Part shown: positions 15,261 to 38,031 of the stretch, piece after piece
Layout of the letters: each line of letters starts with the position of its first letter
Numbering within the stretch: position 1 is the stretch's first letter
Assembly (NCBI RefSeq): GCF_003352465.1
Contig: NZ_CP031153.1
Span: 546,465 to 610,464 of the forward strand
Reading direction: 5' to 3'
DNA from: Kordia sp. SMS9
Lineage (GTDB): Bacteria; Bacteroidota; Bacteroidia; Flavobacteriales; Flavobacteriaceae
Length of the DNA stretch: 64,000 bases
Notes under the pieces: model-generated
The model's database searches: none
Told to the model about the DNA's origin: nothing
What the model saw: only the letters and a program-made list of their open reading frames with translations
Made by a program: the position numbers and the translations under genes

Positions 15261-15315
15261 GATGACCTTATAAATTTTTAAATTTTGATTAGCCTGGTGG
15301 CTAATTTTTTTTGCT

Positions 15316-15340
15316 TAAAAAACTTTACTACGTAAAAAGA
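15316..15340. promoter_or_regulatory. Operator-like motif copy 2 (tactacgtaaaaagattgcgcagtt)
   Basis: Second copy of the same motif, upstream of 15453. Confidence 0.5.
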
Positions 15341-15452
15341 TTGCGCAGTTTTTTACTTCTTTTGCCAAAGTTCATTGAAACACTTTTGAAATCAGTTTCC
15401 AAAAGATATGTGTGCCAATCATGACACATATAACTTTTAAAAAACAAACATT

Positions 15453-16153: not shown

Positions 16154-17542
<1,389 letters not shown>

Positions 17543-18068: not shown

Positions 18069-18782
18069 ATGACCAAAAGAAGCAGAGGAAAAGAAGGAAG
18101 TGACGACCGTTTATTTGGCGATCCAAAAATGCAGTCAAAAATGCGAGAAGCCATCAAAGACTTGTCGTATTTATTGAGCAGAGGATTCTCTGAAAAATCG
18201 TCATTGGCATTGGTTGGAAATCGATATAAGCTCAACAATCGCCAACAACGTGCCGTTCAAGGAATGAGTGAAGCAAGTCACAAACTCGAAAAACGTGCAG
18301 CGAACTGTTTATTGCCAAATCAATTAGCAGAAAAGGAAGTCTATATAGACGGTTTTAATGTATTAATCCTATTAGAAAGTGCGTTGTCGGGCGCGTATCT
18401 CTTCAAAGGTTTAGATGGTTGCTATCGTGATATATCAAGCGTGCATGGAACGTATAAAAAAGTAAAACAAACGCCAGAAGCCATTCAACTCATTGCAAAC
18501 TTTCTACAAGAAAACAAGGTCAAAAAAGCTACTTGGATCTTTGACAAACCTGTTTCCAATAGTGGACGACTAAAAACAATGCTACGAGAATTCGCAGACG
18601 AGCATCAACTCCATTGGGAAATCATTTTAGACAATAATCCTGACAAATTTATCGCAGAAAGTAATCAAATCGCCATCAGTTCGGATGCTTGGATTTTAGA
18701 CAATGCAACAACTTGGTGCAATATGGTACGACAGATTGTAGACGAACACATTCCACAGAAAAATGTAGTGGAATCTGAATAA
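18069..18782 (+). CDS. Hypothetical protein (operon partner of RtcB island)
   Basis: ORF track; 237 aa; no motif I can assign with certainty. Confidence 0.45.
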   Translation: MTKRSRGKEGSDDRLFGDPKMQSKMREAIKDLSYLLSRGFSEKSSLALVGNRYKLNNRQQRAVQGMSEASHKLEKRAANCLLPNQLAEKEVYIDGFNVLILLESALSGAYLFKGLDGCYRDISSVHGTYKKVKQTPEAIQLIANFLQENKVKKATWIFDKPVSNSGRLKTMLREFADEHQLHWEIILDNNPDKFIAESNQIAISSDAWILDNATTWCNMVRQIVDEHIPQKNVVESE

Positions 18783-18812: not shown

Positions 18813-19154
18813 ACAAATCATCTTTGAACTCAGAAATACAAAACAACGAAACATATAAAATCATGCAAACTAAAAAAGGTACCGTGTATTAAGTTTTAAC
18901 AAATAACTTAATACAAAATGAAAACACGTGAGAACAAGAAATTTTACAATTTCAAGGAAGTTCACAAACGCAAAAAAAGAACACGAGCTGCAAAAATTCA
19001 CTGGAAAAGCAACACTTGGGAATACCGTCGCTTTTTGCGTCAACAATACCGAACAAAATGCAAAGTCATTCTCAGAAAACAGCTCGAAGGACACGAAATA
19101 GAATTCCCAAGATTCCGAAAAACACTTTGGTGGGAATGGTAAAAACATTTAAAA

Positions 19155-19900
19155 TGAAAACAAGAATACTAGAAAAATTAGCAGAAATAGAACGCGATAA
19201 AAATATCGAAATCTTATTCGCTGTCGAATCAGGAAGCAGAGCTTGGGGCTTTGCTTCTCCCGATTCCGATTATGACATTCGTTTTGTGTACAAACACAAA
19301 ACCGAATGGTATTTGAATCTTTGGGAACAAAAAGATACGATTCAATTCATGACGGAAGACGAATTAGACGGTTCTGGTTGGGACATTAAAAAAGCATTAA
19401 AACTGCTCTCAAAATCGAATGCGTCTTTATTGGGCTGGCTCTTCTCTCCTATTGTGTACAGAAGTTCGGGAACGTTCTTGGAAGAAATGAAAATGGTCGC
19501 TGAAAAGAATTTCAATCCTGTTGCAGGTTTCTTTCACTATCACAGCATGAACAAAAATTTTGAAGAAACGTTAGACACCAATGAAATGACTTTAAAAAGT
19601 TATTTCTATACCATACGAACTGCTTTGTGTGCCAATTGGGTTTACAAAAAGGAAACGGTTCCGCCAGTAAATTTTCGTGAATTATATCCGCTTTTAGATG
19701 AGGAATCTAGTGCTCTTTTGGATGAATTAATTCTGCTAAAAAGCAACGAAATTGAAAAAAGTAATGCGCCTGTGGAGGCTTCTTTAATAAATTTGGTAAA
19801 AAGGATTGTTGCAGAAAACAACGAGATCAAAAATGATCTTAAAAACGTGAAACCAAACCCTGAAGATTTTAATACGCTATTTATAAAAACAATACAATGA
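19155..19900 (+). CDS. Pol-beta superfamily nucleotidyltransferase (COG3541-like), paralog 1
   Basis: ESGSRAWGFASPDSDYDIRFVY matches the G[GS]x9-13 D-x-[DE] pol-beta NTase signature. The start is placed at the internal Met MKTRILEK (the ORF track begins at 19016). Its stop overlaps the next gene (ATGA). Confidence 0.6.
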
Positions 19901-20958
19901 CACTCTCAGAACTCAAGAAATCAGGACATATCATCTTTGAATGTATCAGTGGAAGTCGCGCGTACGGATTAGACACGCCAACTTCCGATACCGATATTCG
20001 TGGTGTTTTTGTATTGCCAAAATCCATGTATTATTCACTCGACTATATTGATCAAATTAATGATGAAACGAATGATACTGTATATTATGAATTGCAAAAA
20101 TTCATTTCATTATGCGCCAAAAATAATCCTAACATCTTAGAATTACTGAATGTTTCGGAAGATTGTATTTTATACAAAAATCCGTTGTTTGACAACATTA
20201 AATTAGATACATTTCTATCCAAACAATGCGAAAAATCGTTTGCAAACTATGCGTTTACTCAAATCAAAAAAGCACGTGGATTGGAAAAGAAAATAGTCAA
20301 TCCAATGGAAAAAGAACGCAAATCTGTGTTGGACTTTTGTTTTGTGTATGAAAATGACACTTCCATTCCTTTAAAGGATTTTTTGATTGATAAAAACATC
20401 CAACAAGAACACTGTGGTATTGCAAACATTCCGCATCTAAAAGATTGTCACAACCTATATCACAACGAAAATATTCCCTACAAAGGAATCATCAAAAGTG
20501 AACTTGCAAACGAATTGGCATTGAGTTCTATCCCAAAAGAAGAAACGACAATTGGAATGCTATTTCACAATAAAGACAGTTATTCTAGTTATTGCAAAAA
20601 GTACAAGGAATATTGGAATTGGGTCGAAAAACGAAATGATGAACGTTACAAAACAACGGTTTCTCATGGAAAAAATTACGATTCCAAAAACATGATGCAT
20701 ACGTTTCGTTTGTTGCGCATGGCAAAAGAAATTGCAACTGAAAAAACGATTCACGTAAAGCGCCCAGATCGTGAATTTTTATTAGATGTAAAACATGGAA
20801 AATATGAATATGATGAATTGGTGACTTGGGCAACAGAATTAAAAACAGAATTGGAAAGACTATATGCAAATTCAACATTGCCAAAACGTCCTGATATAGA
20901 AAAAATTAATAATTTACTCATTAACATTAGAACCGATTTTTACACTAAAAACCCGTGA
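19897..20958 (+). CDS. Pol-beta superfamily nucleotidyltransferase (COG3541-like), paralog 2
   Basis: ISGSRAYGLDTPTSDTDIRGVFV is the same NTase signature; it is translationally coupled to its neighbours. Confidence 0.6.
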   Translation: MTLSELKKSGHIIFECISGSRAYGLDTPTSDTDIRGVFVLPKSMYYSLDYIDQINDETNDTVYYELQKFISLCAKNNPNILELLNVSEDCILYKNPLFDNIKLDTFLSKQCEKSFANYAFTQIKKARGLEKKIVNPMEKERKSVLDFCFVYENDTSIPLKDFLIDKNIQQEHCGIANIPHLKDCHNLYHNENIPYKGIIKSELANELALSSIPKEETTIGMLFHNKDSYSSYCKKYKEYWNWVEKRNDERYKTTVSHGKNYDSKNMMHTFRLLRMAKEIATEKTIHVKRPDREFLLDVKHGKYEYDELVTWATELKTELERLYANSTLPKRPDIEKINNLLINIRTDFYTKNP

Positions 20959-21662
20959 ATGCTCTTCAAAACATAGCATATTCCTGTAAAAGCTTCCTTT
21001 CGGAGGAATGGAAAGCAACATATAGCGCGTTTTTACAAAACGAACACTTGTCTGTACTAGCGCGCAATACGTTTGCCTTGTATAAAAATGATGTTGAGAA
21101 ATTTCACGGGAAACCCAATTTTGAAGAAGAAATTATTCCAAATCTCACGGAAGCATTTGCAATCTTTAAAGAACAATTCAAAACTTTAAAAAAGTATAAC
21201 TTTGAAGATAATAAACTAACGCGTAAAGCGTTTGCCACTGCCGTAGAACGGACAAACTTTGAACACATTTTGATACTTTCCGGACAACGATTGACCTCAG
21301 CGAGTTTGCAAGACGAAAACGCAATTCCGCCATTGCAATACGCATTGATGAAACACAGTTTTGAAGCACACAACGATCAAATTTCAAAAGCAGTCCGCGC
21401 TTGGGAAAAACATGCGCAACGCTCTACGGAAAGTTTCTGGGGAACCGTCAAAGGAAGTGCCGAAGACAAAGAAAAATATGTACAAAAATTGATAACACAC
21501 ATCCTAAAACACAAAACCTGGTGGAATGTATTTACACATTACAAACACGAAGTTGTATATGAAGCTAGAATTGCAAGCGGACACGGAATTCGCTGGAAAA
21601 AAGCTACCTTAGAACTCATCGGATTTTTAGAACCTTTTGAAGATTTTGACAATGGAACATAA
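20955..21662 (+). CDS. Hypothetical protein
   Basis: ORF track; overlapping start/stop with neighbours suggests the same operon. Confidence 0.45.
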   Translation: MNALQNIAYSCKSFLSEEWKATYSAFLQNEHLSVLARNTFALYKNDVEKFHGKPNFEEEIIPNLTEAFAIFKEQFKTLKKYNFEDNKLTRKAFATAVERTNFEHILILSGQRLTSASLQDENAIPPLQYALMKHSFEAHNDQISKAVRAWEKHAQRSTESFWGTVKGSAEDKEKYVQKLITHILKHKTWWNVFTHYKHEVVYEARIASGHGIRWKKATLELIGFLEPFEDFDNGT

Positions 21663-23019
21663 CGAACAAACCTATAATTTTTCGCAACAAGAATGGGAAA
21701 CGTGCTTAAAAGTATTGCATGCGCTCAAAGAAAATCCGTTTGAAAATCCAGATAACAAACAATTTGGAACACTCATCACGAAGATTTCTAAAAAGGCAAA
21801 AAAGGCAAATCGGAAAGATACATTTTCAACCAAAAGACAAGAAGATTTAGAAACGATCTTACATAGTGAAATCTCTAAAAATGCTTTGCAAAACAAGACC
21901 ATTTATCAAGACGAAAAAAAATCGCAACACTCGTTTACAAAACTGAATGTTCCAAAAAATTGTTATTGCTGTAATACTTCGTTCACTTTTGCACATTCGT
22001 TCTACAACCGTTTGTGTCCAACCTGCGCTGAACTCAATTATGAAAACCGGTTCAAAAATCTCGATCTATCAAATCGCAAGGTAATCTTAACAGGCGGACG
22101 TGTAAAAATTGGCTATGCAACAGCGTTGAAAATGCTACGTTTTCATGCACATGTAACGGTAACAACACGTTTTCCTGCAACTGCTTTAGACTTATTTCGC
22201 CAAGAAAAAGATTATGAATCTTGGAAAGATAACTTAGTCATATACGGATTGGATTTACGAAATCTAAAATCGGTTGAAAACTTCATTCACTATTACAAAA
22301 ACACACACAAAACGCTCGATATTCTCATCAATAATGCAGCGCAAACGATCAAATATACCGACCAATACTACACACCATTAATTGCGAGAGAACAACAATT
22401 GGCATTAGAATTTTCTGGTCAGCAAAACTTAATCGCGAATGAAACACCTGTGGCGAATGTGAAATTATTGAACAATCATGTAGAAAAAAGTTTCTTGGAA
22501 CTCAATCGTTTTGGACAACCTATTGACACTCGTTCAAAAAATAGCTGGAATGCTACTTTGGAAGAAATCTCCATGCAGGAATTGATTGAAGTCAACTTGA
22601 TCAATCAAATTTCGCCGTACTTTATCATCAAAGAATTGTTGCCATTGTTGAAAAATTCTAGCTTTCCTAAAAAACACATCATCAATGTCACTTCTTCGGA
22701 AGGACAATTCAGTTACAACAACAAAACTATGTTTCATCCGCACACCAATATGACCAAAGCGGCTTTAAACATGATGTCGTTAACCGCGGCAAAAACCTTT
22801 GAAAAAGATAACATTTACATGAACGCTATAGATGTTGGTTGGGTTTCTACAGGAGCAAACGAAACCTTACGAAAACAACAATTTGAAAAAGGATACATTC
22901 CGCCACTTGATCCTGTGGATGGCGCTTCAAGAATCGTACATCCTATCTATGAAAATGAAGAAAACAATACTATCTTTACAGGAAAGTTATTAAAAAACTA
23001 CTGTATTGTAGATTGGTAA
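21637..23019 (+). CDS. SDR-family oxidoreductase with N-terminal Cys4 zinc-ribbon-like extension
   Basis: Rossmann TGGrvkIGyAtA motif plus a downstream NNAAQ; the N-terminal region has CYCC...CPTC. Confidence 0.65.
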   Translation: MKILTMEHNEQTYNFSQQEWETCLKVLHALKENPFENPDNKQFGTLITKISKKAKKANRKDTFSTKRQEDLETILHSEISKNALQNKTIYQDEKKSQHSFTKLNVPKNCYCCNTSFTFAHSFYNRLCPTCAELNYENRFKNLDLSNRKVILTGGRVKIGYATALKMLRFHAHVTVTTRFPATALDLFRQEKDYESWKDNLVIYGLDLRNLKSVENFIHYYKNTHKTLDILINNAAQTIKYTDQYYTPLIAREQQLALEFSGQQNLIANETPVANVKLLNNHVEKSFLELNRFGQPIDTRSKNSWNATLEEISMQELIEVNLINQISPYFIIKELLPLLKNSSFPKKHIINVTSSEGQFSYNNKTMFHPHTNMTKAALNMMSLTAAKTFEKDNIYMNAIDVGWVSTGANETLRKQQFEKGYIPPLDPVDGASRIVHPIYENEENNTIFTGKLLKNYCIVDW

Positions 23020-23034
23020 AAGCTAAAAGATACA

Positions 23035-23109
23035 GCAGTAGTTCAAAAGAGTTGGAAGAACACTACCTTGCAAAGGTAGAGGATGCGGGTTCGAGTCCCA
23101 TTTACTGCT
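23035..23109 (+). tRNA. tRNA-Cys(GCA)-like
   Basis: Acceptor GCAGTAG/TTACTGC, anticodon arm CTACC-TTGCAAA-GGTAG (anticodon GCA), T-loop GGGTTCGAGTCCC. The T-stem has one mismatch and the D-arm is atypical. Confidence 0.45.
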
Positions 23110-23149
23110 CTTTAAAAACAATAATAAGAAATTTTGATACGCAAAGATT

Positions 23150-23410
23150 GATGGTTTAATTGGAAGAACACCTAGCTCATCACTGGAAGTGCGAGTTCAA
23201 ACCTCGCTCAATCTTTGCTCAAAAAACGGCAGTGATAGTAGCTCAATTGGAAGAGCATCTGCTCAACCAGCAGAGGGTTTTGAGTTCAAATATCAAGTAT
23301 TGCTGCCTATTAAAAATCATTACGAGAGTTGGTAGTTTAACTGGAAGAACACCTGGCAACCACTCAGGAAGTGCGAGTTCAAACCTTGCGCAACGCTCGT
23401 ATCACAATGG
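23150..23410 (+). pseudogene. Three degenerate tRNA-like repeats (paralogous to flanking tRNAs)
   Basis: Units share D-arm-like GGTTTAAYTGGAAGAACA and a perfect T-arm GCGAGTTCAAACCTCGC. Anticodon arms and acceptor stems pair poorly and carry 4-nt extras between the T-stem and the acceptor strand. Confidence 0.4.
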
Positions 23411-23412
23411 CA

Positions 23413-23485
23413 ACGGTAGTAGCTCAGTTGGAAGAGCGCATGCCTGTCACGCATGAGGTCGCGGGTTCGAATCTCGTTTACTGTT
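23413..23485 (+). tRNA. tRNA-Asp(GUC)
   Basis: D-arm GCTCAGTTGGAAGAGC, anticodon arm CATGC-CTGTCAC-GCATG (GTC), T-loop GGGTTCGAATCTC. The acceptor pairs with two G-U wobbles. Confidence 0.6.
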
Positions 23486-23507
23486 GCCTATTTAAAAAAA
23501 GAAACAC

Positions 23508-23732
23508 ATGAAATACGCATTAGAAAAAACCACCAATACACATATTTTGGAAGCCGAAAACATAAAAGTTCGCCATACAGTTGGTAGTACGCAAGTATTA
23601 CAAATTGAAGGTGAAGGAATGGTGTCACATGGAGAACACGGAATTATAAAAACAGACAGTAAATATGTGATTAAGTATGTGCAACAAGAATTTAATCCTG
23701 TAACACGCATCATTGAAAATGCTTTTGATTAA
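23508..23732 (+). CDS. Hypothetical small protein
   Basis: ORF track; 74 aa; directly upstream of the 676-aa ORF. Confidence 0.3.
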   Translation: MKYALEKTTNTHILEAENIKVRHTVGSTQVLQIEGEGMVSHGEHGIIKTDSKYVIKYVQQEFNPVTRIIENAFD

Positions 23733-23744
23733 GAGTTTAGGATC

Positions 23745-25775
23745 GTGAAAACCATAAAAATACATACTGAAGAAGATATTTCAAAAATCACGGAAACGGA
23801 TACTATTCGATTAGAAATATATCTAAAAAATGCTGTAATCCCCATTCAGGAAATGAGTGGCGAATTGTACGTACGCGCTGTTGGTTGTAAATTTCCAAAC
23901 TTAACAACCGTTTTCGGATTGGTTTCTTTAGATGCGCATAAAGCGGAATTGCCAAAACTCACAGAAATTCAAGGAAATTTGAACATTCATGGGAATGATA
24001 TTTTACTTCCTGAATTAAGCAAAATATTAGGTGATTTTAAACAACATCATCCTGTAGAATTACCCAAACTCAAAATAATCACGGGAAAATCCAATGTGCC
24101 AAAAAGTTGTATCCCAAAAAAATGGCAACGTGTTCTTTTTCAAAAGGATTTAGATATCTTGGAACAAGGCGAATTATACAATCTTAGTATAGAAAATTGT
24201 AATGTTACTTTGCGTAGTCATGTAATTTATGGAAACTTGAAAACTATCAATGCAAAAGTAAACTGTCCTAACTTAGAAACAATTTATGGTGATTTCACAC
24301 TTGAAATCTCTGATAAATTCAGTAATTATACAGCAAAACCAAGCTTAAATTTTGATGACATTGAAAGTGGAAAAGCAGCAAGTCTTTTTGAAAGTCCCAA
24401 GCTTAAAACAATTCATGGAAGCTGTGAAATCAACACAACAAAACCTATAAATATTGATGTTGAAAACGTTAACGATAGAATTGAAATTCAAAAAGGAAAA
24501 GCTTCTTTTAGAAAACTTCTTAAAACGGGAGCGCTAATTGTAAGAGAAAAATCAAAAATGGTTTGTGATGCGCTCACAGAAACAACAAAGAAACTCGTAA
24601 CGCACCAAGAAAGTTACCTAAGTGCAAAATCACTCTATAAAATTGGAAAACATTGTGGTATCGGTTCCAAAATTGATATTCCGAATTTACTTTTTATTCA
24701 GGGAGATTTATCTTTAAGCCAACGCAATTATAATGATCCAAAAATTAAGCATGAATTCAAAAGTCTAAAATATATAGGTGGAAAAATAACGTTTGATGAA
24801 TTCTGCTCATTTCCTAAATTAGAAGAAGTAAAAGGTGTTTGCAACATAAGAATGTTAAAAAACATCTCTGCTGCAACAGCACCAAAATTAACGTATATAG
24901 ATACCTTAGATATTGGTGAACAACAAAATTCTCGAATTAGAGAACGACTTCCAAGTCTGCAAAAAGTAGGAACAATGATGTATCAAGACAATACTGAACA
25001 TCTAGTTATTGATCATTTTTTTCATACTATAGAAAATCGAAATACAAAATTCATCATCTCAAAGGAATCTTTCTCAATATGGAATAGTTTAAGTGAAGAT
25101 AAATTACCTATACAAAGACTAATTGCTATTTTAAAAATGCGTCATATTTCTTTTGATAATTTTTACACACGTGAAGTGACTCGCGAATGGAAGTATGAAA
25201 GCAATCCGTCTTTTGATGAAATAATTCGTTCCATCAAAAAGAAATGGAAAAAGGTTACGCCATTAACGTATGAAGATATATTTCAACTTCATGACTTTTC
25301 TTTGCGAAGATTTGCGTTTAACTATGTTGGTGTAGACACTTTTATGCAAAAACTAAAAGCAAAACGAATTGCTACAGAAGGAATTGAAGTCAATCATATT
25401 CAATATGATGAATTAGGAAATAAAAAAATGGTGCAAAAACACAACGTTTTTGAAATTTACGAAGCCGATTTTAACAAAGTGGAACACTTTAGATCTTGGC
25501 GCGGAGAAAAACAATTGCGTTATGCTGTAAAATGTTGGTGTACTTCTACCCATCAAGAACATTGGATTTGGATTGAAGAAGCATACAAGAATGATCCACT
25601 TTCTGCGATTGCTTCTACATTTCGCGTGCATGAAAATGTGATTCCATATATTTCTTGTCTAAAGCGTCAAGGAGATATTTTATTATGTGAAATGAAACGA
25701 AATGTACGACCTGAAGGAACAATTAGAGCCTTAACCAAAGAAGAATATTTTGGCCTGCTTGTTGCAGAATCCTAG
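23745..25775 (+). CDS. Hypothetical 676-aa protein with leucine-rich-repeat-like N-terminal half
   Basis: ORF track; repeated LPKLxEIxGNLNIxGN-type units; no signal peptide. Confidence 0.55.
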   Translation: MKTIKIHTEEDISKITETDTIRLEIYLKNAVIPIQEMSGELYVRAVGCKFPNLTTVFGLVSLDAHKAELPKLTEIQGNLNIHGNDILLPELSKILGDFKQHHPVELPKLKIITGKSNVPKSCIPKKWQRVLFQKDLDILEQGELYNLSIENCNVTLRSHVIYGNLKTINAKVNCPNLETIYGDFTLEISDKFSNYTAKPSLNFDDIESGKAASLFESPKLKTIHGSCEINTTKPINIDVENVNDRIEIQKGKASFRKLLKTGALIVREKSKMVCDALTETTKKLVTHQESYLSAKSLYKIGKHCGIGSKIDIPNLLFIQGDLSLSQRNYNDPKIKHEFKSLKYIGGKITFDEFCSFPKLEEVKGVCNIRMLKNISAATAPKLTYIDTLDIGEQQNSRIRERLPSLQKVGTMMYQDNTEHLVIDHFFHTIENRNTKFIISKESFSIWNSLSEDKLPIQRLIAILKMRHISFDNFYTREVTREWKYESNPSFDEIIRSIKKKWKKVTPLTYEDIFQLHDFSLRRFAFNYVGVDTFMQKLKAKRIATEGIEVNHIQYDELGNKKMVQKHNVFEIYEADFNKVEHFRSWRGEKQLRYAVKCWCTSTHQEHWIWIEEAYKNDPLSAIASTFRVHENVIPYISCLKRQGDILLCEMKRNVRPEGTIRALTKEEYFGLLVAES

Positions 25776-26460
25776 ATATCAATAGGGTTAGAATAATTAT
25801 AAATAACACCCAAAATTTGGAAGAAACCCTATAAAAATGACATATTTGCCACACTAATGACAAAAAACTATTTACATATAGCCTCAATTTGCCTGAAAAG
25901 TCAGGACACAAATCGCGGAATGGTTGAACCATTTTGGCGAAACGAGACGCTTTATGTACATTTTTATCAGTGAAGTTTATGATGAAATAACACAAAAATT
26001 ATACAAATAGTAAAGCGTCCAAGGAATTGGGCGCTTTTTTTATGAAAAAAAATTAAAAAATGTTCAAAGCATAATCAAATAGAAACATAAAAGGTTGAAA
26101 CAAAAAGCAATTGAGAGACAGACAGTTGGCAAAAAGTTCAATATCCGTTGCATAACGGACAGGAATTCCCATATCTAAATCTAAACATAACTACTTGATT
26201 ATCAATAAAATAAATTTAAAAAAATTTGTGTAATCAAAAAATCGTTTTCATATTTGCAACGTCAAAAACAAAAAACGACAATATAAAAAACATCATGAAA
26301 TATACGATACATCACATATCCGCCTTAGCAAACATTCTCCGATCACTGGAAAATTGCAGCTTGTTTGTTTGGGAACAGAAGGGAGATTTTATGTATAGAA
26401 AAAAATGGGAGTATGATAAAGATACGTTACTATGATCGTAACTATATAGAAACTTTATAA

Positions 26461-26492
26461 AAGCATCTCCCAAAAAAGAGATGCTTTTTTTA
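26461..26492 (+). terminator. Rho-independent terminator
   Basis: GCATCTC...GAGATGC hairpin followed by a T-run, immediately before the tRNA array. Confidence 0.6.
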
Positions 26493-26513: not shown

Positions 26514-26588
26514 TGATGCATAGCTTAGTTGGTTAGCCCAGAGGCGCTTTTAACGTCAAGGTCGTGAGTTCGAACCTCACTGCGTCAA
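26514..26588 (+). tRNA. tRNA-Lys(UUU)-like
   Basis: Acceptor TGATGCA/TGCGTCA, anticodon loop CTTTTAA, T-arm GTGAG-TTCGAAC-CTCAC. The anticodon stem has a mismatch. Confidence 0.5.
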
Positions 26589-26594
26589 CAAAAA

Positions 26595-26681
26595 GGAAGA
26601 GCAAGCCAATTGGCGGTGGCCACGGTCTTGAAAACCGTTCGGAGTTAATGACTCGTGTGGGTTCGACTCCCACTTCTTCCG
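26595..26681 (+). tRNA. tRNA-Ser(UGA), type II
   Basis: Acceptor GGAAGAG/TTCTTCC, anticodon arm ACGGT-CTTGAAA-ACCGT, long variable arm, T-arm GTGGG-TTCGACT-CCCAC. Confidence 0.6.
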
Positions 26682-26691
26682 CAACTAATTT

Positions 26692-26778
26692 GGAGTGTAG
26701 GTAAATATTGGTTCGTTACGCTTGACTGCTAATCAAGTCCGTTTAACCGCGGTGAAGGTTCAATTCCTTTGCGCTCCG
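26692..26778 (+). tRNA. tRNA-Ser(GCU), type II
   Basis: Acceptor GGAGTGT/GCGCTCC (G-U wobbles), anticodon arm CTTGA-CTGCTAA-TCAAG, long variable arm, T-loop GGTTCAATTCC. Confidence 0.55.
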
Positions 26779-26787
26779 CAACATATT

Positions 26788-26914
26788 GGGGATATAGTTT
26801 ACCAAGCTAAAACAGTGGGTTTAACTCGATGATACCTATTTGATATTATGGTCTCATTGAATTCGCAAGCTTATTTGCTTCTCGCAGCACGGAGTGCAAG
26901 TCTCCGTATCTCCA
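26788..26914 (+). other. Oversized (127-nt) tRNA-like element
   Basis: Good acceptor GGGGATA/TATCTCC, D-arm GTTT-ACCAAGCTA-AAAC and T-like arm CGGAG-TGCAAGT-CTCCG, but ~50 extra nt in between with no clean anticodon arm. The T-loop has G at position 55. Confidence 0.35.
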
Positions 26915-26920
26915 CAACAT

Positions 26921-26992
26921 GATATTATAGCTCAATGGCAGAGCAAAGACCTGTTAAGTCTGAGGTTGAAGGTTCGAATCCTTCCGATATCG
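26921..26992 (+). tRNA. tRNA-Asn(GUU)
   Basis: D-arm GCTCAATGGCAGAGC, anticodon loop CTGTTAA, T-arm GAAGG-TTCGAAT-CCTTC. 3' end ...CGATATC-G-CA. Confidence 0.6.
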
Positions 26993-26996
26993 CAAC

Positions 26997-27069
26997 GACA
27001 AGGTGGCTGAATGGCAAAGGCAGCAGTCTGCAAAACTGTTTTGTATGAGTTCGAATCTCATCCTTGTCT
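26997..27069 (+). tRNA. tRNA-Cys(GCA)
   Basis: Acceptor GACAAGG/CCTTGTC perfect, anticodon arm GCAGT-CTGCAAA-ACTGT, T-arm ATGAG-TTCGAAT-CTCAT. Confidence 0.65.
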
Positions 27070-27117
27070 CAATGATTATGTAGTATCAAACTTGTTTGAA
27101 TAGTATATAATTTACTT

Positions 27118-27200
27118 GGAAGTGTTGAGAAATTGGTTGGCTTGCCAGACTGTAAATCTGGTCTCTTCGGAGCGTGTAGGTTCGAGTCCTACTACTTCCA
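27118..27200 (+). tRNA. tRNA-Tyr(GUA), type II
   Basis: Acceptor GGAAGTG/TACTTCC, anticodon arm CCAGA-CTGTAAA-TCTGG, long variable arm, T-arm GTAGG-TTCGAGT-CCTAC. Confidence 0.65.
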
Positions 27201-27206
27201 CAACAC

Positions 27207-27278
27207 ACGCTTGTGGTGTAACTGGTAGCATGTACGTCTCCAAAACGTACGGTTGAGGTTCAAATCCTTGCGGGCGTG
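27207..27278 (+). tRNA. tRNA-Trp(CCA)
   Basis: Anticodon arm TACGT-CTCCAAA-ACGTA, T-loop GGTTCAAATCC. The acceptor pairs with two G-U wobbles. Confidence 0.55.
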
Positions 27279-27282
27279 CAAA

Positions 27283-27440
27283 ATATAGCTATGGTGTAAT
27301 GGATAGCACATGAGATTTAGCTCACATGTTATTCATTATAGATTAAGCAGTTCGTGAATGTGAAAACATTTCTAACCTCATAGTCTAAGTTCGAAATGCT
27401 TTGCATTCATGAGTTCCTATTTATTAAGATAAGAACAAAA
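27283..27440 (+). pseudogene. Degenerate tRNA-Arg-like 5' half followed by ~100 nt of unassigned structured sequence
   Basis: Starts ATAGCTATGGTGTAATGGATAGCACA (same acceptor/D-arm as the tRNA-Arg at 27888), but the anticodon arm is broken and no intact T-arm/acceptor follows. Only an AAGTTCGAAATGC T-loop-like fragment is present. Confidence 0.35.
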
Positions 27441-27467
27441 CGAACTAATCTTAGTAGCTATACAAAT

Positions 27468-27539
27468 AGTATCGTGACTCAACGGTAGAGTGCTCGACTG
27501 TCTCTCGAGAAGTTGCGGGTTCGAATCCCGTCGGTACTG
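27468..27539 (+). tRNA. tRNA-Asp(GUC)-like (pyrimidine at position 37)
   Basis: D-arm ACTCAACGGTAGAGT, anticodon arm CTCGA-CTGTCTC-TCGAG, T-arm GCGGG-TTCGAAT-CCCGT, acceptor AGTATCG/CGGTACT. Confidence 0.5.
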
Positions 27540-27545
27540 CAAAAT

Positions 27546-27618
27546 CTGGGAATAGAACAATTGGCTGTTTACTCGCCTTGGACGCGAGAGGATGTAGGTT
27601 CGAATCCTGCTTCCCAGA
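27546..27618 (+). tRNA. tRNA-Pro(UGG)
   Basis: Acceptor CTGGGAA/TTCCCAG perfect, anticodon arm CTCGC-CTTGGAC-GCGAG, T-arm GTAGG-TTCGAAT-CCTGC. Confidence 0.6.
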
Positions 27619-27709
27619 CGACTAAATCAAAGCAAGCTTGCTTGAATTTGATTTGCAGTGAGGCATAGCAGGAACACTTTGCAAATCCTGCTTCTGAAAC
27701 AAATAAAAT

Positions 27710-27781
27710 GCTCCGTTCGTCTAATGGCTAGGACACCTGCCTTTCGAGCAGATAATAAGAGTTCGATTCTCTTACGGAGTA
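27710..27781 (+). tRNA. tRNA-Glu(UUC)
   Basis: Acceptor GCTCCGT/ACGGAGT, D-arm GTCTAATGGCTAGGAC, anticodon loop CTTTCGA, T-arm AAGAG-TTCGATT-CTCTT. Confidence 0.55.
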
Positions 27782-27787
27782 CAAAAT

Positions 27788-27860
27788 GCAGAGGTGGCGG
27801 AATGGCATACGCAGCTGTCTTAGAAGCAGTTTTTTGAGAGTTCGAATCTCTCTCTCTGTA
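27788..27860 (+). tRNA. Atypical tRNA: anticodon UAG (Leu) on a 73-nt type-I body
   Basis: Acceptor GCAGAGG/TCTCTGT (G-U wobbles), anticodon arm GCTGT-CTTAGAA-GCAGT, 5-nt variable loop, T-arm GAGAG-TTCGAAT-CTCTC. Bacterial tRNA-Leu normally has a long variable arm. Confidence 0.4.
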
Positions 27861-27887
27861 CAAACGCAATCTTGAAAGGAGTGCAAC

Positions 27888-27959
27888 AAGTTTATGGTGT
27901 AATGGATAGCACATTGGCCTACGAAGCCAAGAGTATAGGTTCGAATCCTATTAGACTTA
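27888..27959 (+). tRNA. tRNA-Arg(ACG)
   Basis: D-arm GTGTAATGGATAGCAC, anticodon arm TTGGC-CTACGAA-GCCAA, T-arm ATAGG-TTCGAAT-CCTAT. Confidence 0.6.
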
Positions 27960-27965
27960 CAATAT

Positions 27966-28037
27966 TGATCTGTGGTGTAACGGTTAGCACACGAGACTTT
28001 GACTCTCGGGGAAGAGGTTCGGTTCCTCTCAGATCTA
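27966..28037 (+). tRNA. tRNA-Gln(UUG)
   Basis: Anticodon arm CGAGA-CTTTGAC-TCTCG perfect, T-arm AGAGG-TTCGGTT-CCTCT, acceptor ...GATCTG/CAGATCT. Confidence 0.6.
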
Positions 28038-28041
28038 CTAT

Positions 28042-28137
28042 AGCGATATAGCTTAATTGGTAAAGCACTGGTCTCATAAGCCAGAAGTTGAAATGCCTGT
28101 ACTGAACTTGATTCAGTATCTAAGATTTCTATCGCCA
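28042..28137 (+). pseudogene. tRNA-Met/Ile2(CAU)-like gene whose T-loop is replaced by a ~29-nt palindromic (REP-like) insertion
   Basis: Acceptor AGCGATA, D-arm GCTTAATTGGTAAAGC, anticodon arm CTGGT-CTCATAA-GCCAG, then T-stem GAAAT/ATTTC enclosing GCCTGTACTGAACTTGATTCAGTATCTAAG in place of the 7-nt T-loop. It is a paralog of the intact tRNA-Ile that follows. Confidence 0.5.
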
Positions 28138-28145
28138 CTAAAAAT

Positions 28146-28218
28146 AGTGATATAGCTTAACTGGTAAAGCGTCAATCTGATAAGTTGGCAGATGAAAGTT
28201 CAAATCTTTCTATCACTA
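28146..28218 (+). tRNA. tRNA-Ile(GAU)
   Basis: Acceptor AGTGATA/TATCACT perfect, D-arm GCTTAACTGGTAAAGC, anticodon loop CTGATAA, T-arm GAAAG-TTCAAAT-CTTTC. Confidence 0.65.
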
Positions 28219-28225
28219 CAAAAAT

Positions 28226-28298
28226 GGTGACTTTAGTTTATTTGGTAAAACGCCTCACTGTGAATGAGAGGAACAGGGTTCGATCCCCGAAGTCACCC
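28226..28298 (+). tRNA. tRNA-His(GUG) with encoded G-1
   Basis: 5' GGTGACTT..., anticodon loop CTGTGAA, 3' ...AAGTCACC-C (G-1:C73 pair typical of bacterial tRNA-His). The T-stem is imperfect. Confidence 0.55.
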
Positions 28299-28303
28299 AA
28301 CCA

Positions 28304-28427
28304 GGAATAATGACAGAGTTGGTCAATGCGATGGATTGAAATGAGTTTACGAATTCATCGAAACCTATTTAATAAAATAGAATTCTATGAGATAAACCCA
28401 GAGATATAGGTTCGAATCCTATTTATT
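28304..28427 (+). other. Oversized (124-nt) tRNA-like element
   Basis: Acceptor GGAATAA/TTATTCC perfect and T-arm ATAGG-TTCGAAT-CCTAT, but ~50 extra nt internally, including a GAATTC-centred palindrome; no clean anticodon arm. Confidence 0.35.
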
Positions 28428-28533
28428 CCACAAAAGAAATGTAGTTTAAAATTAAAATAGCGAGCTAGTATCTCGAAGATGCAAGTAAAGTCTTGCCATT
28501 TCTCAAATTAAAAATTAATAAAAACAAACAGTC

Positions 28534-29006: not shown

Positions 29007-30014
29007 ATGTTTAAAAAATATAATAGTATCGAAAATACCTACCGTGAAAAGGCAACCGAACAAGTATATCTTCACGGGTATGGAAACGATGTATTTGTGG
29101 TACAAGAAAAAGTACATGGCGCTAATTTTTCTTTCATTACGGATGGAGATACAATTAGAGTTGCCAAACGTACATGTCTAATTGCAGAAGATGAAAACTT
29201 CAACAATCACAGATATGTTTTACACAAATATGAAAAAGCAATTACAGGGCTTTTCAAACGTGTAAAGAACGATTTTCCAGAAACAGAAATGATCACTGTT
29301 TTTGGTGAAATTTTCGGAGGAAGCTATCCGCATGCGGAGGTAGAAAAGATCGATGGAATGGTTCGCATTCAAAAAGGTGTTTTTTACAGTCCAGAAAATG
29401 ACTTTTACGCGTTTGATATTTGTATCAATCACACGCAATATCTTGATGTTACCATCGCGAACACATACTTTGAAGCAACAGGAATGTTGTATGCAAAAAC
29501 ACTTTTTGCAGGAACCTTTAGCGAATGTATGGCATATCCAAATGCATTTGAATCAAAAGTTCATGAATGGCTACATCTTCCAAAGATTGAAGACAATGTT
29601 TGTGAAGGAACCATCATCAAACCATTAACTAGCAAGCGTTTTGGAAATGGACAACGTGTTATTTTCAAAAACAAAAACGAAAAATGGTCTGAAAAGTCAC
29701 ATGAAAAACGATCAAGAGTTTCAAAGCCAAGTGCAATAGGAATGCTTTCACATACTGAAAAAGAATTGATGCACACGCTTTTGGGCTACGTGAACGAAAA
29801 TCGTTTGATGAATGTACAAAGTAAGCTTGGAGAGTTTTCACCAAAACAAACGGGAAAAACGATCGGATTGCTTGCCAAAGATGCACTAGAAGATTTTGTA
29901 AAAGATCATGAAAATGATTGGAATAACGTACAAAAAGAGCATCAAAAAGTATTAACAAAAATACTGAACAAAGAAGCAGTTACTGTCGTAAAAAAAGTAC
30001 TTCTTTTTAGGTAA
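29007..30014 (+). CDS. ATP-dependent RNA ligase, T4 Rnl2-like
   Basis: Nucleotidyltransferase motif I EKVHGANF (compare T4 Rnl2 EKIHGTN), motif IV VCEGTIIKP, motif V VIFKNKNEKW; 335 aa. Confidence 0.7.
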   Translation: MFKKYNSIENTYREKATEQVYLHGYGNDVFVVQEKVHGANFSFITDGDTIRVAKRTCLIAEDENFNNHRYVLHKYEKAITGLFKRVKNDFPETEMITVFGEIFGGSYPHAEVEKIDGMVRIQKGVFYSPENDFYAFDICINHTQYLDVTIANTYFEATGMLYAKTLFAGTFSECMAYPNAFESKVHEWLHLPKIEDNVCEGTIIKPLTSKRFGNGQRVIFKNKNEKWSEKSHEKRSRVSKPSAIGMLSHTEKELMHTLLGYVNENRLMNVQSKLGEFSPKQTGKTIGLLAKDALEDFVKDHENDWNNVQKEHQKVLTKILNKEAVTVVKKVLLFR

Positions 30015-30934: not shown

Positions 30935-31140
30935 CAAATATAATCCTCCATAGAGAAACATGGGTCATGGGTTCGAATCCCATTCTCGCAAGAGATAGTT
31001 CAGCGGTTAGAACAATGTTTTTGGATGTTGCCGGTTCGAGTCCGGTCAGTAGTTCCGAAAGGGCGGCTATTGTAACTCAATTGGTAGAGTACTACACTTT
31101 TAATGTAGATTGAAGTTCGATTTCTTCTAAAAAAATCACC
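30935..31140 (+). pseudogene. Three tRNA-like fragments (minihelix-like T-arm+acceptor; D-arm+T-arm without acceptor pairing; Lys(UUU)-like D/anticodon arms without acceptor)
   Basis: ATGGGTTCGAATCCCAT flanked by GAGAA/TTCTC; GTTCAGCGGTTAGAAC ... GCCGGTTCGAGTCCGGT; ACTCAATTGGTAGAGT + CTACA-CTTTTAA-TGTAG + AAGTTCGATTTCTTC. None folds into a complete cloverleaf. Confidence 0.4.
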
Positions 31141-31450
31141 AGCCTGTCACGCTGTTAAATTTGACGAAAACGATGTTGCGTGTATCTGCTGAAGTTTCAC
31201 AAGAAACGAACAGCAATTTTGAAGTCACTTCGACATAAAAAGTGCTTACTGATCGCAACTGGAATTTCTTGAAGATCAGATCAAACTAAAAATATAGCTT
31301 TTGTTGTGTTTTGGTGCGATTCCATCCTCAAAAAAGAACAAGTGAACATGAGTAAAATCTTTTATCTCCGTGAACCAGAAATGATACATGTACGTCGTTT
31401 TTAAAACAAAGTAGAATCGCCAGTAATGGCACAAAATTAGAATAGAAATC

Positions 31451-32551
31451 ATGAAACGAGTACGAATTCACACTGGAAAAGTAGGGTTGGTTTTCAAAAA
31501 TGGAAACTACCAAAAAGTTTTGACAGAAGGCACCTATTGGTTAGGCTTCCGCCAGCATGTATTGATCTATAATATTACAGAAAAGTTTCATGCGTCAGTA
31601 GCGAGTGAAATTTTACTGCAAGATGTCACCTTGACAAACATGTTAGACGTAATCGACATTAAAGACAACGAAATTGTGTTGCTTTTTGAAAGAGGAAACT
31701 TTAAAACAGTTTTAGAAGCTGGACAACATTTGTATTGGAAAGGTTTAGTAGAACGAACGTTTACACGAGTTGACTTGAATACAACAGCAATTACAGAAAT
31801 CAACGATAAAAACTTGCTAAACGATTATAAATTAACAAAGTATATACGAACGTTTGAAGTCTTAGAATACGAAAAAGCAATTTTATTGATTGATGACAAA
31901 TTTGAAAAAATTCTAACCTCAGGAATCTATCATTTTTGGCGAAATGCCACTAATATTAAAATTTCAAAAGTAGATATGCGTCAGTTACAATTGGAAATTG
32001 CAGGACAAGAATTGTTAACAAAAGATAAAGCCGCAATTCGAATCAACTTTTACACACAATACAAAGTTACTGATGTTAAAAAAGCAATTTTAGACAACAA
32101 AGACTTTGAGAAGCAACTATACATTGCTATGCAGTTGAAGCTTCGCGCTTTTGTTGGAAACTATACATTGGATGAATTGTTGGATCAGAAAGAAGACATT
32201 GCCAATGCCGTTTTTGAAAACACAAAAGATGCCGCAGAAAACTTAGGAATCAACGTTTTGTATTGTGGTATTCGCGATGTGATTTTAACAGGAGAAATGA
32301 AAGATATCATGAATCAGGTTTTAATCGCACAGAAAAAAGCACAAGCAAACATCATTACACGACGTGAAGAAACGGCTTCCACAAGAAGTTTGCTCAACAC
32401 CGCAAAATTGATGGAAGAAAACGCAATGTTGTATCAGTTGAAAGAGATGGAATATGTGGAGAAAATCGCAGATAAAATTGGCGAAATCACGGTTGCTGGA
32501 AACGGCGGCGTGGTAAAGCAATTAAAAGACATCTTTTCTGTCAACAAATAA
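31451..32551 (+). CDS. SPFH/band-7 (slipin-like) domain protein
   Basis: C-terminal half KAAIRINFYTQYKV...QKKAQANIITRREETAS... is typical of stomatin/HflKC-type SPFH domains. Confidence 0.75.
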   Translation: MKRVRIHTGKVGLVFKNGNYQKVLTEGTYWLGFRQHVLIYNITEKFHASVASEILLQDVTLTNMLDVIDIKDNEIVLLFERGNFKTVLEAGQHLYWKGLVERTFTRVDLNTTAITEINDKNLLNDYKLTKYIRTFEVLEYEKAILLIDDKFEKILTSGIYHFWRNATNIKISKVDMRQLQLEIAGQELLTKDKAAIRINFYTQYKVTDVKKAILDNKDFEKQLYIAMQLKLRAFVGNYTLDELLDQKEDIANAVFENTKDAAENLGINVLYCGIRDVILTGEMKDIMNQVLIAQKKAQANIITRREETASTRSLLNTAKLMEENAMLYQLKEMEYVEKIADKIGEITVAGNGGVVKQLKDIFSVNK

Positions 32552-34977: not shown

Positions 34978-35015
34978 GATTTAGCAAAATCATTACTCAC
35001 CTAAAACTCAAAATT

Positions 35016-35450
35016 ATGACTAAAAAATTGGCATTAGATGAACTTCCTAAACGTCTCACTATAGATGGTAAAAAAATAGACGATATGCTAATGATCTATG
35101 GTTTTGTGGCTCCAGGAACAGCAGAAAACAACATCAAATTCTACCTAGATCCTTCTTTGAAAACATCAGTAGTTATTAACGATGAAGATATCATTCACCA
35201 TGCAAAAGTGAACAAGTCGCACAATCCTATTGGTGGAACAGTCATTTGGGTTAAAAATGCAGCTAAGTACATACAAGGAAACGCAACACCAGCACAGGCA
35301 GTAGCAAACATACAAGCACAACAACATGCTGAACAATTTTTCCAAGGAGACATTTATCAACAATATGCAAACACTGTTCAAGGAAATACCCAACCAAAAC
35401 CACAAAACCCTTATGCACCAGTTTGTGGATGCGGAAAATGCGAACAGTAA
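35016..35450 (+). CDS. Hypothetical 144-aa protein with Ala/Gln-rich segment and C-terminal CGCGKC
   Basis: ORF track. TPAQAVANIQAQQHAEQ resembles the AQAQ punctuation of the downstream precursor. The C-terminus reads PVCGCGKCEQ. Confidence 0.5.
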   Translation: MTKKLALDELPKRLTIDGKKIDDMLMIYGFVAPGTAENNIKFYLDPSLKTSVVINDEDIIHHAKVNKSHNPIGGTVIWVKNAAKYIQGNATPAQAVANIQAQQHAEQFFQGDIYQQYANTVQGNTQPKPQNPYAPVCGCGKCEQ

Positions 35451-35542
35451 AAGAGATCATACCCAAAATTGATAAGCAACTATCAATTTCCAAAATCGTA
35501 AGATTTTAAAAATCATATTATTAACCTTTAACTTAAATTATT

Positions 35543-36850: not shown

Positions 36851-36908
36851 TGATAGCTTATCTACAATAGATACAGCTATTTTTTAGTAGTATAAAGCTG
36901 CCTGTACA

Positions 36909-38027: not shown

Positions 38028-38031
38028 AACC

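Follow-up and report, generated by a model that had tools for sequence, protein, structure and literature searches.

Tandem tRNA-like RNAs linked to a Zn-ribbon-SDR gene in an RNA-repair island of Kordia sp. SMS9 and its relatives

A 64,000-nt stretch of DNA from the flavobacterium Kordia sp. SMS9 (assembly GCF_003352465.1, contig NZ_CP031153.1, positions 546,465 to 610,464 of the forward strand), hereafter the window, carries an island in which five tRNA-like units stand head to tail directly behind a gene for a fusion between a zinc ribbon and a classical short-chain dehydrogenase/reductase (Zn-ribbon-SDR). The island begins with a WYL regulator, a DEDD exonuclease, the RNA ligase RtcB, o155, a DUF434/DUF5616 protein, two RlaP nucleotidyltransferases, o235, the Zn-ribbon-SDR and the five units, and continues with o74, o676, two terminators, some 19 tRNA genes, an Rnl2 ligase, an RNase H-like protein, further tRNA-like elements and an SPFH/Band-7 gene. 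The RNAs of the array are tRNA-shaped, under selection, co-inherited with the SDR gene, unlike the ordinary tRNAs of the same island and diversified in their anticodon arm. What they might be doing there, possibly as protein-bound tRNA mimics, is discussed below. Positions are those of the window, and related loci are referred to by number (L003, L084 and so on).

The array and its five units

According to ARAGORN, the array occupies positions 23032-23488 of the plus strand, beginning 13 nt past the stop codon of the SDR gene (23019) and ending 20 nt before the next open reading frame (23508). This bears out a preliminary reading made from the sequence alone (the sequence-only reading), which had placed five tandem units right after a nucleotidyltransferase/SDR operon and had described the outer two as Cys(GCA)- and Asp(GUC)-like, which are indeed their nominal anticodons. 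All five units fit the tRNA cloverleaf model of Rfam (RF00005), with 42.0, 45.1, 30.4, 31.4 and 60.8 bits for units 1 to 5 (the gathering score is 29) and with E-values of 1e-12 to 2.4e-4 in a 611-nt region, which speaks against chance; ARAGORN agrees. No RNA family other than tRNA was found in Rfam at E <= 1, apart from a sub-threshold minus-strand match to Plastid-ycf2 that mirrors the tRNA. The units have D-arm (UUGGAAGA[A/G]C) and T-arm sequence in common, and their pairwise identity is 44-70% overall and 0.57-0.93 over the D, variable and T regions.

Such shared segments had been noticed before, together with the proposal that only the outer two units could fold; the first part stands and the second does not, since RNAfold returns a cloverleaf without guidance for units 2, 3 and 5. 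Nor have the middle three units lost complementarity in their acceptor and anticodon stems, as had been thought: their acceptors retain 7/7, 6/7 and 5/7 pairs and their anticodon stems 4-5 bp. Their true abnormality is the anticodon loop, with C37 in CUCAUCA and no U33 in UCAACCA and CAACCAC, and with A34 in two of them. These loop registers are taken from ARAGORN, because the loop sizes given by RNAfold are misleading (it forms in-silico 32-38 and 33-37 pairs).

Unit 1 (23032-23110, Cys-GCA), although an outer copy, is the least canonical of the five and the only one with real lesions. Its D loop is 13 nt long and its acceptor contains two mismatches (A1.C72 and C5.A68), which are caused by a 3-nt insertion; the unit scores 65.3 bits with the family covariance model (R1), and RNAfold shifts its acceptor stem (z = -1.4). 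Its orthologues in L087 (4372) and L089 (4373) have an 8-nt D loop and a perfect ACAGCAG/CUGCUGU acceptor, and unit 1 has therefore gained insertions of 5 nt and 3 nt in this genome. Unit 2 (called by ARAGORN at 23144-23216 as Met-CAU and annotated here as 23141-23218) presents the loop CUCAUCA (CAU, C37) on a 4-bp anticodon stem; its perfect 7-bp acceptor is prolonged by four leader/trailer pairs (GCAA/UUGC), so that RNAfold predicts a cloverleaf with an 11-bp closing helix (z = -2.75), and its UCAU core is kept in the orthologues of L081, L084, L086, L088 and L089.

Unit 3 (ARAGORN 23231-23307, Val-AAC; annotated as 23228-23307) has the loop UCAACCA (C33, A34, C37) on a 5-bp anticodon stem, an acceptor with 6/7 pairs followed by four more (GGCA/UGCC), 65.5 bits with R1 and a cloverleaf in RNAfold with z = -2.8, none of 200 shuffles being as stable. 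Compared with L084, its anticodon stem shows two compensatory pairs (UCUGC/GCAGA vs CUUGC/GCAAG). Unit 4 (ARAGORN 23326-23398, Gly-ACC; annotated as 23322-23400), with the loop CAACCAC (A33, A34) on a 5-bp anticodon stem, an acceptor with 5/7 pairs plus four (ACGA/UCGU) and 52.1 bits with R1, is a close paralogue of unit 2 (93% identity over the D, variable and T regions). Its L084 orthologue has an identical loop, and there the A.G mismatch is replaced by a U-A pair through changes on both strands. Unit 5 (ARAGORN 23412-23488, Asp-GUC; annotated as 23409-23488) is Asp-like, with a canonical loop (CUGUCAC) and U73 instead of G73; its 7-bp acceptor is extended by GGCA/UGCC and it reaches 75 bits with R1. 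Members of this class are present and last in the array at 9/9 Kordia-clade loci, always with GUC and with compensatory variants of the anticodon stem (CAUGC/GCAUG, CCUGC/GCAGG, CAUGA/UCAUG).

Linkage to the Zn-ribbon-SDR gene

The gene upstream of the array (21637-23019, plus strand; Pfam adh_short) probably starts at the ATG at 21652, which gives 455 aa as in its relatives. The protein has invariant CxxC...CPxC (zinc ribbon) and TGGRVKIG motifs, with a basic helical N-terminus before the SDR core, and its N-terminal domain has no match in Pfam (E <= 10) or in a sequence search of the PDB. The AlphaFold2 (AF2) model is poor (pLDDT 65), and Foldseek retrieves with it nothing but classical SDRs of a generic kind (FabG, tropinone reductase and the like). 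HPHTNMTK is found at the position of the usual catalytic Tyr of SDRs.

A profile scan with an alignment of the 455-aa fusion, restricted to one genome per species, yielded at least 598 relatives, of which 80 loci were kept: a close clade of 33 loci (at least 41% identity) and a distant clade of 47 (L034-L080, 35-40% identity). Units near the SDR genes were called by ARAGORN or the family covariance model. At 32/32 evaluable close-clade loci, one to eight units lie on the same strand within ~100 nt of the SDR gene, and the sole locus without them (1/33) is cut off by a contig end. Since the 9/9 evaluable Kordia-clade loci, found by exact protein look-up, also have units, the total is 41/41. By estimate, chance alone would place a tRNA gene this near (a few hundred bases) to a given gene in about 1% of cases. 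Most close-clade loci have the units 3' of the SDR gene and nine have them 5' of it. The hosts belong to Flavobacteriaceae, Weeksellaceae, Sphingobacteriia, Saprospiraceae and Cytophagales, together with metagenome-assembled genomes labelled Desulfobacterales, SAR324, Campylobacteraceae and Acinetobacter. No tRNA-like unit and no conserved neighbour was found at the 47 distant-clade loci (Gemmatimonadota, Armatimonadota and others).

Other genes are less constant partners. At the 33 close-clade loci, o235 is found in 16/33 and the DUF434/DUF5616 gene in 12/33, RtcB, RlaP, Rnl2, o74/o676 and SPFH are rarer, and at about 12 loci the SDR gene and the RNA are the sole shared elements. These data support the earlier suggestion that a family of paralogues has been amplified locally, which is unusual in a bacterial chromosome, and that it is tied to a nucleotidyltransferase/SDR operon. 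The SDR fusion itself is widespread (Gemmatimonadota, Acidobacteriota, Verrucomicrobiota, Actinomycetota and others among its at least 598 loci, again with one genome per species), and it has no conserved neighbours outside the Bacteroidota-type clade.

Structural conservation across the family

An alignment of 90 units with their flanks shows strong covariation. Cloverleaf cells are paired in 83% of cases vs 59% in shuffles (acceptor 88.5%, D 97%, anticodon 85%, T 93%), cells changed on both sides number 704 vs 238 expected, and the covariation score is 0.698 vs 0.256 in shuffles, a value reached by 0/500 shuffles and by none of the slid registers. The D arm (UAG[C/U]U.AA.UGGAA[G/A]A[G/A]C) and the T arm (GGUUCGAnUCC) are near-invariant, with 0.70 and 0.81 bits per column, whereas the acceptor and anticodon arms, at 1.6-1.7 bits, are as variable as the flanks and yet still paired. 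Compensatory changes are also seen between close relatives, when the window is compared with L084 (an 88%-identity relative), L081, L082 and L087. Kept pairing, covariation and compensatory changes together point to purifying selection on structure rather than decay.

The sequence-only reading had taken the array for a decaying tRNA family. This does not hold, since units are kept at 41/41 loci, their stems change in a compensatory manner and unit 4 has its odd loop unaltered in L084; a lack of positional and structural conservation and of compensation, as expected of pseudogenes, is not what is seen. That reading had named the scoring of the middle units as tRNAs by covariance models as the result that would count against it, which is what both Rfam and the family model do, and an alignment of the kind that it had proposed, here of 90 units, contradicts decay by the strength of the cloverleaf covariation.

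Variation is unevenly distributed along the molecule: where an array arose by recent duplication, its paralogues are almost identical outside the anticodon arm. Paralogues in L015 differ at 8/17 positions of the anticodon arm vs 1/54 elsewhere (p = 2e-5), three pairs of paralogues in L003 show the same concentration (p = 8e-5 to 6e-3), and units 2 and 4 of the window differ at 10/16 positions of this arm vs 11/55 elsewhere (p = 0.0035). Anticodon-arm differences between orthologues of L018 and L020 amount to 0/17 and 1/14. The anticodon arm, in which paralogues differ and which orthologues keep, thus looks like the specificity part of these RNAs. Some of these arms imitate real ones (Asp CUGUCAC, Gly CUUCCAA, Ser UUGCUAA), and others present the same loops with U33 or position 37 replaced (CCGUCAC, CCAUCAA, CCUCCAA, CAUCCAA).

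Comparison with decoding tRNAs

The most serious, though unlikely, alternative to a non-decoding role is that the units are working decoders, that is, spare nuclease-resistant isoacceptors whose altered loops escape anticodon nucleases. In its favour, (i) five of five units pass tRNA models and 43% of the family have canonical loops, (ii) the GUC and CAU triplets are kept among Kordia orthologues, (iii) the island encodes a full tRNA set in which tRNA-Asp and tRNA-Glu also have variant loops (U37), and (iv) changes in the anticodon loop are known to let phage tRNAs escape defences that target tRNA (PMC10264068; PMC11464382).

Against it stand the identity elements, anticodon loops and 3' ends of the units. 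Major identity elements are G3:U70 for Ala, a long variable arm for Ser, Leu, Tyr and Sec, and the discriminator base for Asp, Gly, Cys, Trp, Val, Glu, Met and Arg. When the single strongest element for each nominal amino acid was scored, it fitted the anticodon in 9/90 units vs 29/40 other island tRNAs, by E. coli rule sets. Among the other island tRNAs, Asp (6/6), Cys (4/4), Trp (4/4), Ser (5/5), Arg (5/5) and Tyr (2/2) all pass. The five window units all have U73, which suits the nominal Cys unit and none of the other four. A long variable arm is missing from all ten 'Ser', two 'Leu' and two 'SeC' units, and G3:U70 is absent in 10/12 'Ala' units.

The anticodon loops point the same way. With a canonical loop defined by a 3-nt anticodon in a 7-nt loop, U33 and a purine at 37, 49/114 SDR-adjacent units (43%) qualify vs 96/114 other tRNAs of the same loci; in the window, units 2, 3 and 4 fail and units 1 and 5 are canonical. 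Many members have A34, 'anticodons' of 2 or 4 nt or loops without U33. A34 is confined in bacteria to tRNA-Arg(ACG), but it occurs in 23/114 units, just one of which is Arg-ACG.

The 3' end is no less peculiar. No unit encodes CCA, and in Kordia the four bases that precede position 1 are paired with positions 73-76 in an 11-bp closing helix, as in 4/5 window units. Pairing of at least 3 bp at positions 73-76 occurs in 13/15 Kordia array units vs 0/66 other island tRNAs, which carry an N73-CAA trailer (missing from the units) without leader/trailer pairing. The extension is also found in Aquimarina, Dokdonia and Aureivirga. Finally, a strict tie to one protein gene would be unexpected for decoders.

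Genes of the island

Divergent from the island, a WYL/WCX-domain regulator (13545-14558, minus strand; Pfam, PADLOC WYL) is kept in L081 and L082; apart from it, PADLOC found no known defence system. The plus strand then encodes RtcB (16157-17542; Pfam PF01139, 6.2e-37), a protein with DUF434 and DUF5616 according to Pfam (18069-18782; COG2454), which belongs to a group classed as predicted NYN/PIN-like nucleases (PMC5499597), and two RlaP-family nucleotidyltransferases (19016-19900 and 19897-20958; Pfam PF10127, 2.6e-69 and 1.5e-29). RlaP, which adds 1-2 NMP to the 3'-OH of RNA, makes excessively damaged tRNA functional again (PMC12776372).

The next gene, o235 (20955-21662, plus strand), encodes a helical N-terminal domain and a C-terminal BECR-fold domain (AF2 pLDDT 92). 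Its C-terminal ~95 residues resemble CdiA-CT(PABL017) of P. aeruginosa (Foldseek 6d7y_A, probability 1.0, TM(target) 0.81, rmsd 2.3 A, 24% identity; profile search E = 0.0025), with which it has the motif A..KHA.R...WG.VKGS in common. CdiA-CT(PABL017) is a colicin-D-like tRNase of BECR fold with reported targets tRNA-Gln and tRNA-Pro (PMC9086364). The o235 family comprises 325 homologues, found in Bacteroidota only, with a conserved KH..R motif and a cytoplasmic, non-secreted context. It has no Pfam match, and searches of NCBIfam and PHROGs were uninformative for o235, o74, o676 and o155.

Directly after the array come o74 (23508-23732) and o676 (23745-25775), two uncharacterised plus-strand genes that match no family and whose homologues follow the array in L013, L014, L016 and L084. 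A terminator scan found no terminator-like site between 19016 and 26012, the first intrinsic terminators lying past these genes (26012-26037 and 26459-26488), so the units are probably co-transcribed with the flanking protein genes. Matches in a promoter scan stayed within shuffled expectation, in a scan that covers promoters other than those of Bacteroidota. Beyond the terminators, the plus strand carries ~19 further tRNA genes for most amino acids (26514-28504), with an N73-CAA trailer, an Rnl2-type RNA ligase (29007-30014; Pfam RNA_ligase and T4_Rnl2_C), two tRNA-like elements (30996-31046 and 31058-31134; 35.3 bits in Rfam, 29.8 and 20.6 bits with R1) and the SPFH/Band-7 gene (31451-32551; Pfam Band_7), the upstream tRNA-like arrangement of which is the same in L084 and L086.

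A phage origin, suspected from the 21+ tRNAs, was considered and rejected, since DNA similarity to 50,697 phage records is limited to single tRNAs. The window holds genes of chromosomal type (among them LanC and a SusC-type TonB receptor), the SDR and o235 proteins map to complete Kordia chromosomes of 5.4-5.6 Mb, where counterparts of the flanking proteins have 85-92% identity, and an SDR relative is encoded by only three viral contigs, none of which has the tRNA-like RNA. A set of peptidase S8, APH-type kinase, HopA1 and LanC genes, possibly a lanthipeptide-like cluster, directly flanks the island in Kordia (33406-40342; 14258-20956 in L082).

Other tRNA genes of the island

The remaining tRNA genes have peculiarities of their own. 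From 26514 to 28504, and in the clusters of L084, L086 and L033, nearly every tRNA is followed by N73 and CAA(A) rather than CCA, and the 'Leu-UAG' genes of island clusters are 74 nt long and without a long variable arm. In every island seen, and in three genera, the ordinary tRNA-Asp(GUC) carries U37 where a purine is usual (loop CUGUCUC; window 27468-27540; L081 12441; L082 12329; L084 16074; L086 15619; L088 5880; L089 6557; L090 5410; L004 18945; L012 12903; L033 8674), and tRNA-Glu(UUC) has CUUUCUA, also with U37, in L084 and L086. These conserved variants are reminiscent of phage tRNAs that evade nucleases.

Two kinds of insert are seen in T arms. A hairpin of ~24 nt, CCTGTGCTGAACTTGATTCAGTAT, is inserted between the 5' strand of the T stem and T54 in several tRNA or tRNA-like genes of the islands (window 28041-28133; L084 11385-11480; L081 ~12790-12860; L082 ~12440-12500 and ~12810-12870; L088 ~6290-6350), with further minus-strand sites at window 42351 and L084 88. 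Since copies are found outside tRNAs as well, this hairpin resembles a small mobile repeat with T loops as its target. The second insert, of ~50 nt (ATG..TTCACGAA..GTGAGCTAA), sits exactly between TTCGAA and the 3' strand of the T stem (position 59/60) in different tRNAs and genomes: L082 12190-12320 (Cys), L086 11372-11490, 11513-11640 and ~15300-15420 (Tyr), L087 ~7020-7140 (Lys), and the window at ~27290-27440 (minus strand) and 28304-28430. The minus-strand copy suggests a tRNA gene missed by ARAGORN and Rfam, and the 127-nt Rfam tRNA match at 28304-28430 has a related insert at another site. Genes with the 59/60 insert adjoin the RtcB and Rnl2 ligases, and the insert might resemble an intron; conceivably, nuclease and ligase proteins encoded by the island splice it.

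A conserved composite of ~230 nt lies 5' of the SPFH/Band-7 gene (window 30940-31160; L084 20330-20530; L086 19555-19760). Its parts are a fragment of a T arm, a tRNA-like element that has no normal anticodon arm, a tRNA resembling Lys-UUU but devoid of the 3' acceptor strand, and a lone anticodon hairpin of Asp type (CAGCCUGUCACGCUG); the whole is probably the locus of the predicted band-7-associated tRNA discussed below.

Relation to known systems

The units are only partly anticipated in the literature as far as it was available to us, and their closest known kind is, on the best reading, the tRNA associated with band-7, or b7a-tRNA, which was predicted in RtcB/Band-7 operons by Burroughs & Aravind 2016 and never validated, according to bioRxiv 10.1101/312249. 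The RtcB-type RNA-repair neighbourhood is common to both in that account. The units differ, on the published description only, in that they adjoin a Zn-ribbon-SDR gene rather than Band-7 and come in arrays of 1-8 with diversified anticodon arms and, in Kordia, leader/trailer-extended acceptor stems. In the window, the Band-7 gene is 8 kb away and has separate tRNA-like elements, and SPFH is found within 10 kb of the units only in the window, L012, L084 and L086. Rfam has no b7a-tRNA family.

Other parallels are looser. YrlA and Y RNAs, which work with Ro60 (Rsr), are likewise tRNA mimics with D/T-arm tertiary contacts and no free CCA end, encoded beside a protein partner and RtcB and proposed to act in RNA repair or decay. 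However, YrlA is circularly permuted, ending in the equivalent of the anticodon stem with a capped acceptor, whereas the units end at the acceptor and have a full anticodon stem-loop; Rfam gave no Y-RNA match (at gathering or E <= 1), and no Rsr/TROVE domain was found among the scanned neighbours. The defence-escaping tRNAs of phages and islands (PMC10264068; T5 tRNA-Lys vs PARIS, PMC11464382) also form conflict-related clusters with anticodon-loop substitutions, near repair enzymes and whole tRNA sets, but those are charged and decode, while most of the units are without matching identity elements, U33 or a 7-nt loop is often missing from them, and they are strictly tied to one gene. Type III ToxI/ToxN modules similarly have tandem structured RNAs beside an endoribonuclease-like gene. 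The units differ in being tRNA-shaped, different from each other, downstream of protein genes and able to persist without the RNase gene, which is not the make-up of a type III system. Finally, the protein-only RNase P of mitochondria consists of SDR5C1/MRPP2, the NYN nuclease PRORP and TRMT10C. The combination of an SDR-fold protein and an NYN nuclease with tRNA-shaped RNAs punctuating a polycistron is similar by pure analogy; the methyltransferase is absent here and the likeness is at the level of folds only.

Interpretation

Our preferred reading, a tentative one drawn from comparative sequence analysis, is that the five units may be protein-bound tRNA mimics acting in tRNA damage and repair. 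They would be the dedicated RNA of a module in which the Zn-ribbon-SDR fusion is the constant protein, and would be transcribed within an RlaP-RlaP-o235-SDR-[5 units]-o74-o676 operon, which we infer because of the gaps of 13 and 20 nt and the lack of a terminator. The RNAs, predicted in silico to adopt an L shape, would offer their near-invariant D/T-arm 'elbow' as a surface to a protein of the module, and the anticodon arm would serve as the specificity part by copying or distorting real stem-loops (of Asp-GUC, CAU, Gly-UCC and Ser-GCU types), often with U33 or R37 replaced. In Kordia, pairing of the 3' tail (73-76) with the 5' leader would leave no free NCCA end. Such non-decoding RNAs might be surrogate substrates, competitive decoys or sensors for anticodon-arm nucleases, either the colicin-D/CdiA-like RNase domain of the operon and/or incoming tRNase toxins, while broken RNAs would be mended by RtcB, RlaP, Rnl2 and exonucleases, and lost tRNAs made good from the full set nearby.

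Several points weigh against this reading. (i) The identity rules are derived from E. coli. (ii) With 43% canonical loops, and with unit 5 close to a normal tRNA-Asp save for U73, some members could decode. (iii) Unit 1 is damaged in this window. (iv) The 4-bp leader/trailer extension was tried as a family-defining feature and had to be rejected, since family-wide it is paired in 46%, which is chance level. (v) As o235 is missing from about half of the related loci, a role centred on it is not general. (vi) The model of the SDR fusion is too poor to look for an RNA-binding surface. (vii) The constant partner is a dehydrogenase, which the proposed mechanism leaves unexplained.

Besides the decoders considered above, it is conceivable, if rather doubtful, that the units are structural cofactors or scaffolds for RNA ligation and repair, with anticodon-arm variation that has no meaning for targeting; such a role has been put forward for YrlA with Ro60 and for b7a-tRNA with Band-7. 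This would fit their occurrence in the same island as RtcB, Rnl2, RlaP and Band-7 and the conserved elbow, and tRNA-like RNAs have been proposed to assist RNA ligases (Burroughs & Aravind 2016, as reported in bioRxiv 10.1101/312249). However, at many loci the RNA is accompanied by the SDR gene alone and 5 kb around hold no ligase, the concentration of paralogue differences in an arm that orthologues conserve argues that this arm matters, and a scaffold would not need up to eight different units per array. That the units are antitoxin RNAs of the o235 RNase, arrayed as in type III toxin-antitoxin systems, is improbable: tandem structured RNAs of variable copy number do adjoin a gene with a tRNase-toxin fold and conserved catalytic-motif residues, but the array persists without o235 and has in the SDR gene its constant neighbour, and its units are no near-identical repeats and lie downstream of two protein genes rather than upstream of a toxin behind a terminator.

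Decay of a locally amplified tRNA family into pseudogenes, for which the D-loop insertion and acceptor lesion of unit 1, the scores of units 3 and 4 barely above the Rfam threshold and the insertions in some units of relatives could be quoted, is very hard to reconcile with units that stand beside the same gene across several phyla, with strong covariation, with compensatory changes between close relatives and with the loop that unit 4 has in common with L084. That the units, which do lie within a variable genomic island, are remnants of its integration into tRNA genes (duplicated att sites) is scarcely credible and refuted by their shared backbone, which is one and the same whatever the 'anticodon', and they are full-length rather than 3' fragments, with no integrase nearby.

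The reading of the units as protein-bound mimics can be extended, speculatively and with little expectation that every part will hold, to a genome-encoded library of tRNA mimics. Its conserved elbow would dock on the Zn-ribbon-SDR, often together with the colicin-D-like RNase, and interchangeable, fast-diversifying anticodon arms would set the specificity with which anticodon nucleases are sensed, soaked up or redirected.

Outlook

Toxins that cleave tRNA are a major weapon in conflicts among bacteria and between phages and hosts, as illustrated by colicins, contact-dependent inhibition (CDI), type VI secretion system (T6SS) effectors, PrrC, PARIS and VapC. They are known to be countered by repair enzymes and by replacement tRNAs. 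Mimics with variable anticodon arms may be a third component beside repair and replacement, and the library, if true, would represent a new class of RNA-based protection of the translation apparatus. At a more practical level, the units are now annotated as tRNAs with odd anticodons (Val-AAC, Gly-ACC, Asp-AUC etc.), which distorts analyses of tRNA repertoire and codon usage in Bacteroidota. The units also offer dozens of natural variants with which to test what the tRNA-like RNAs predicted in RNA-repair operons do, and the Zn-ribbon-SDR family gains in its cognate RNA a first concrete handle.

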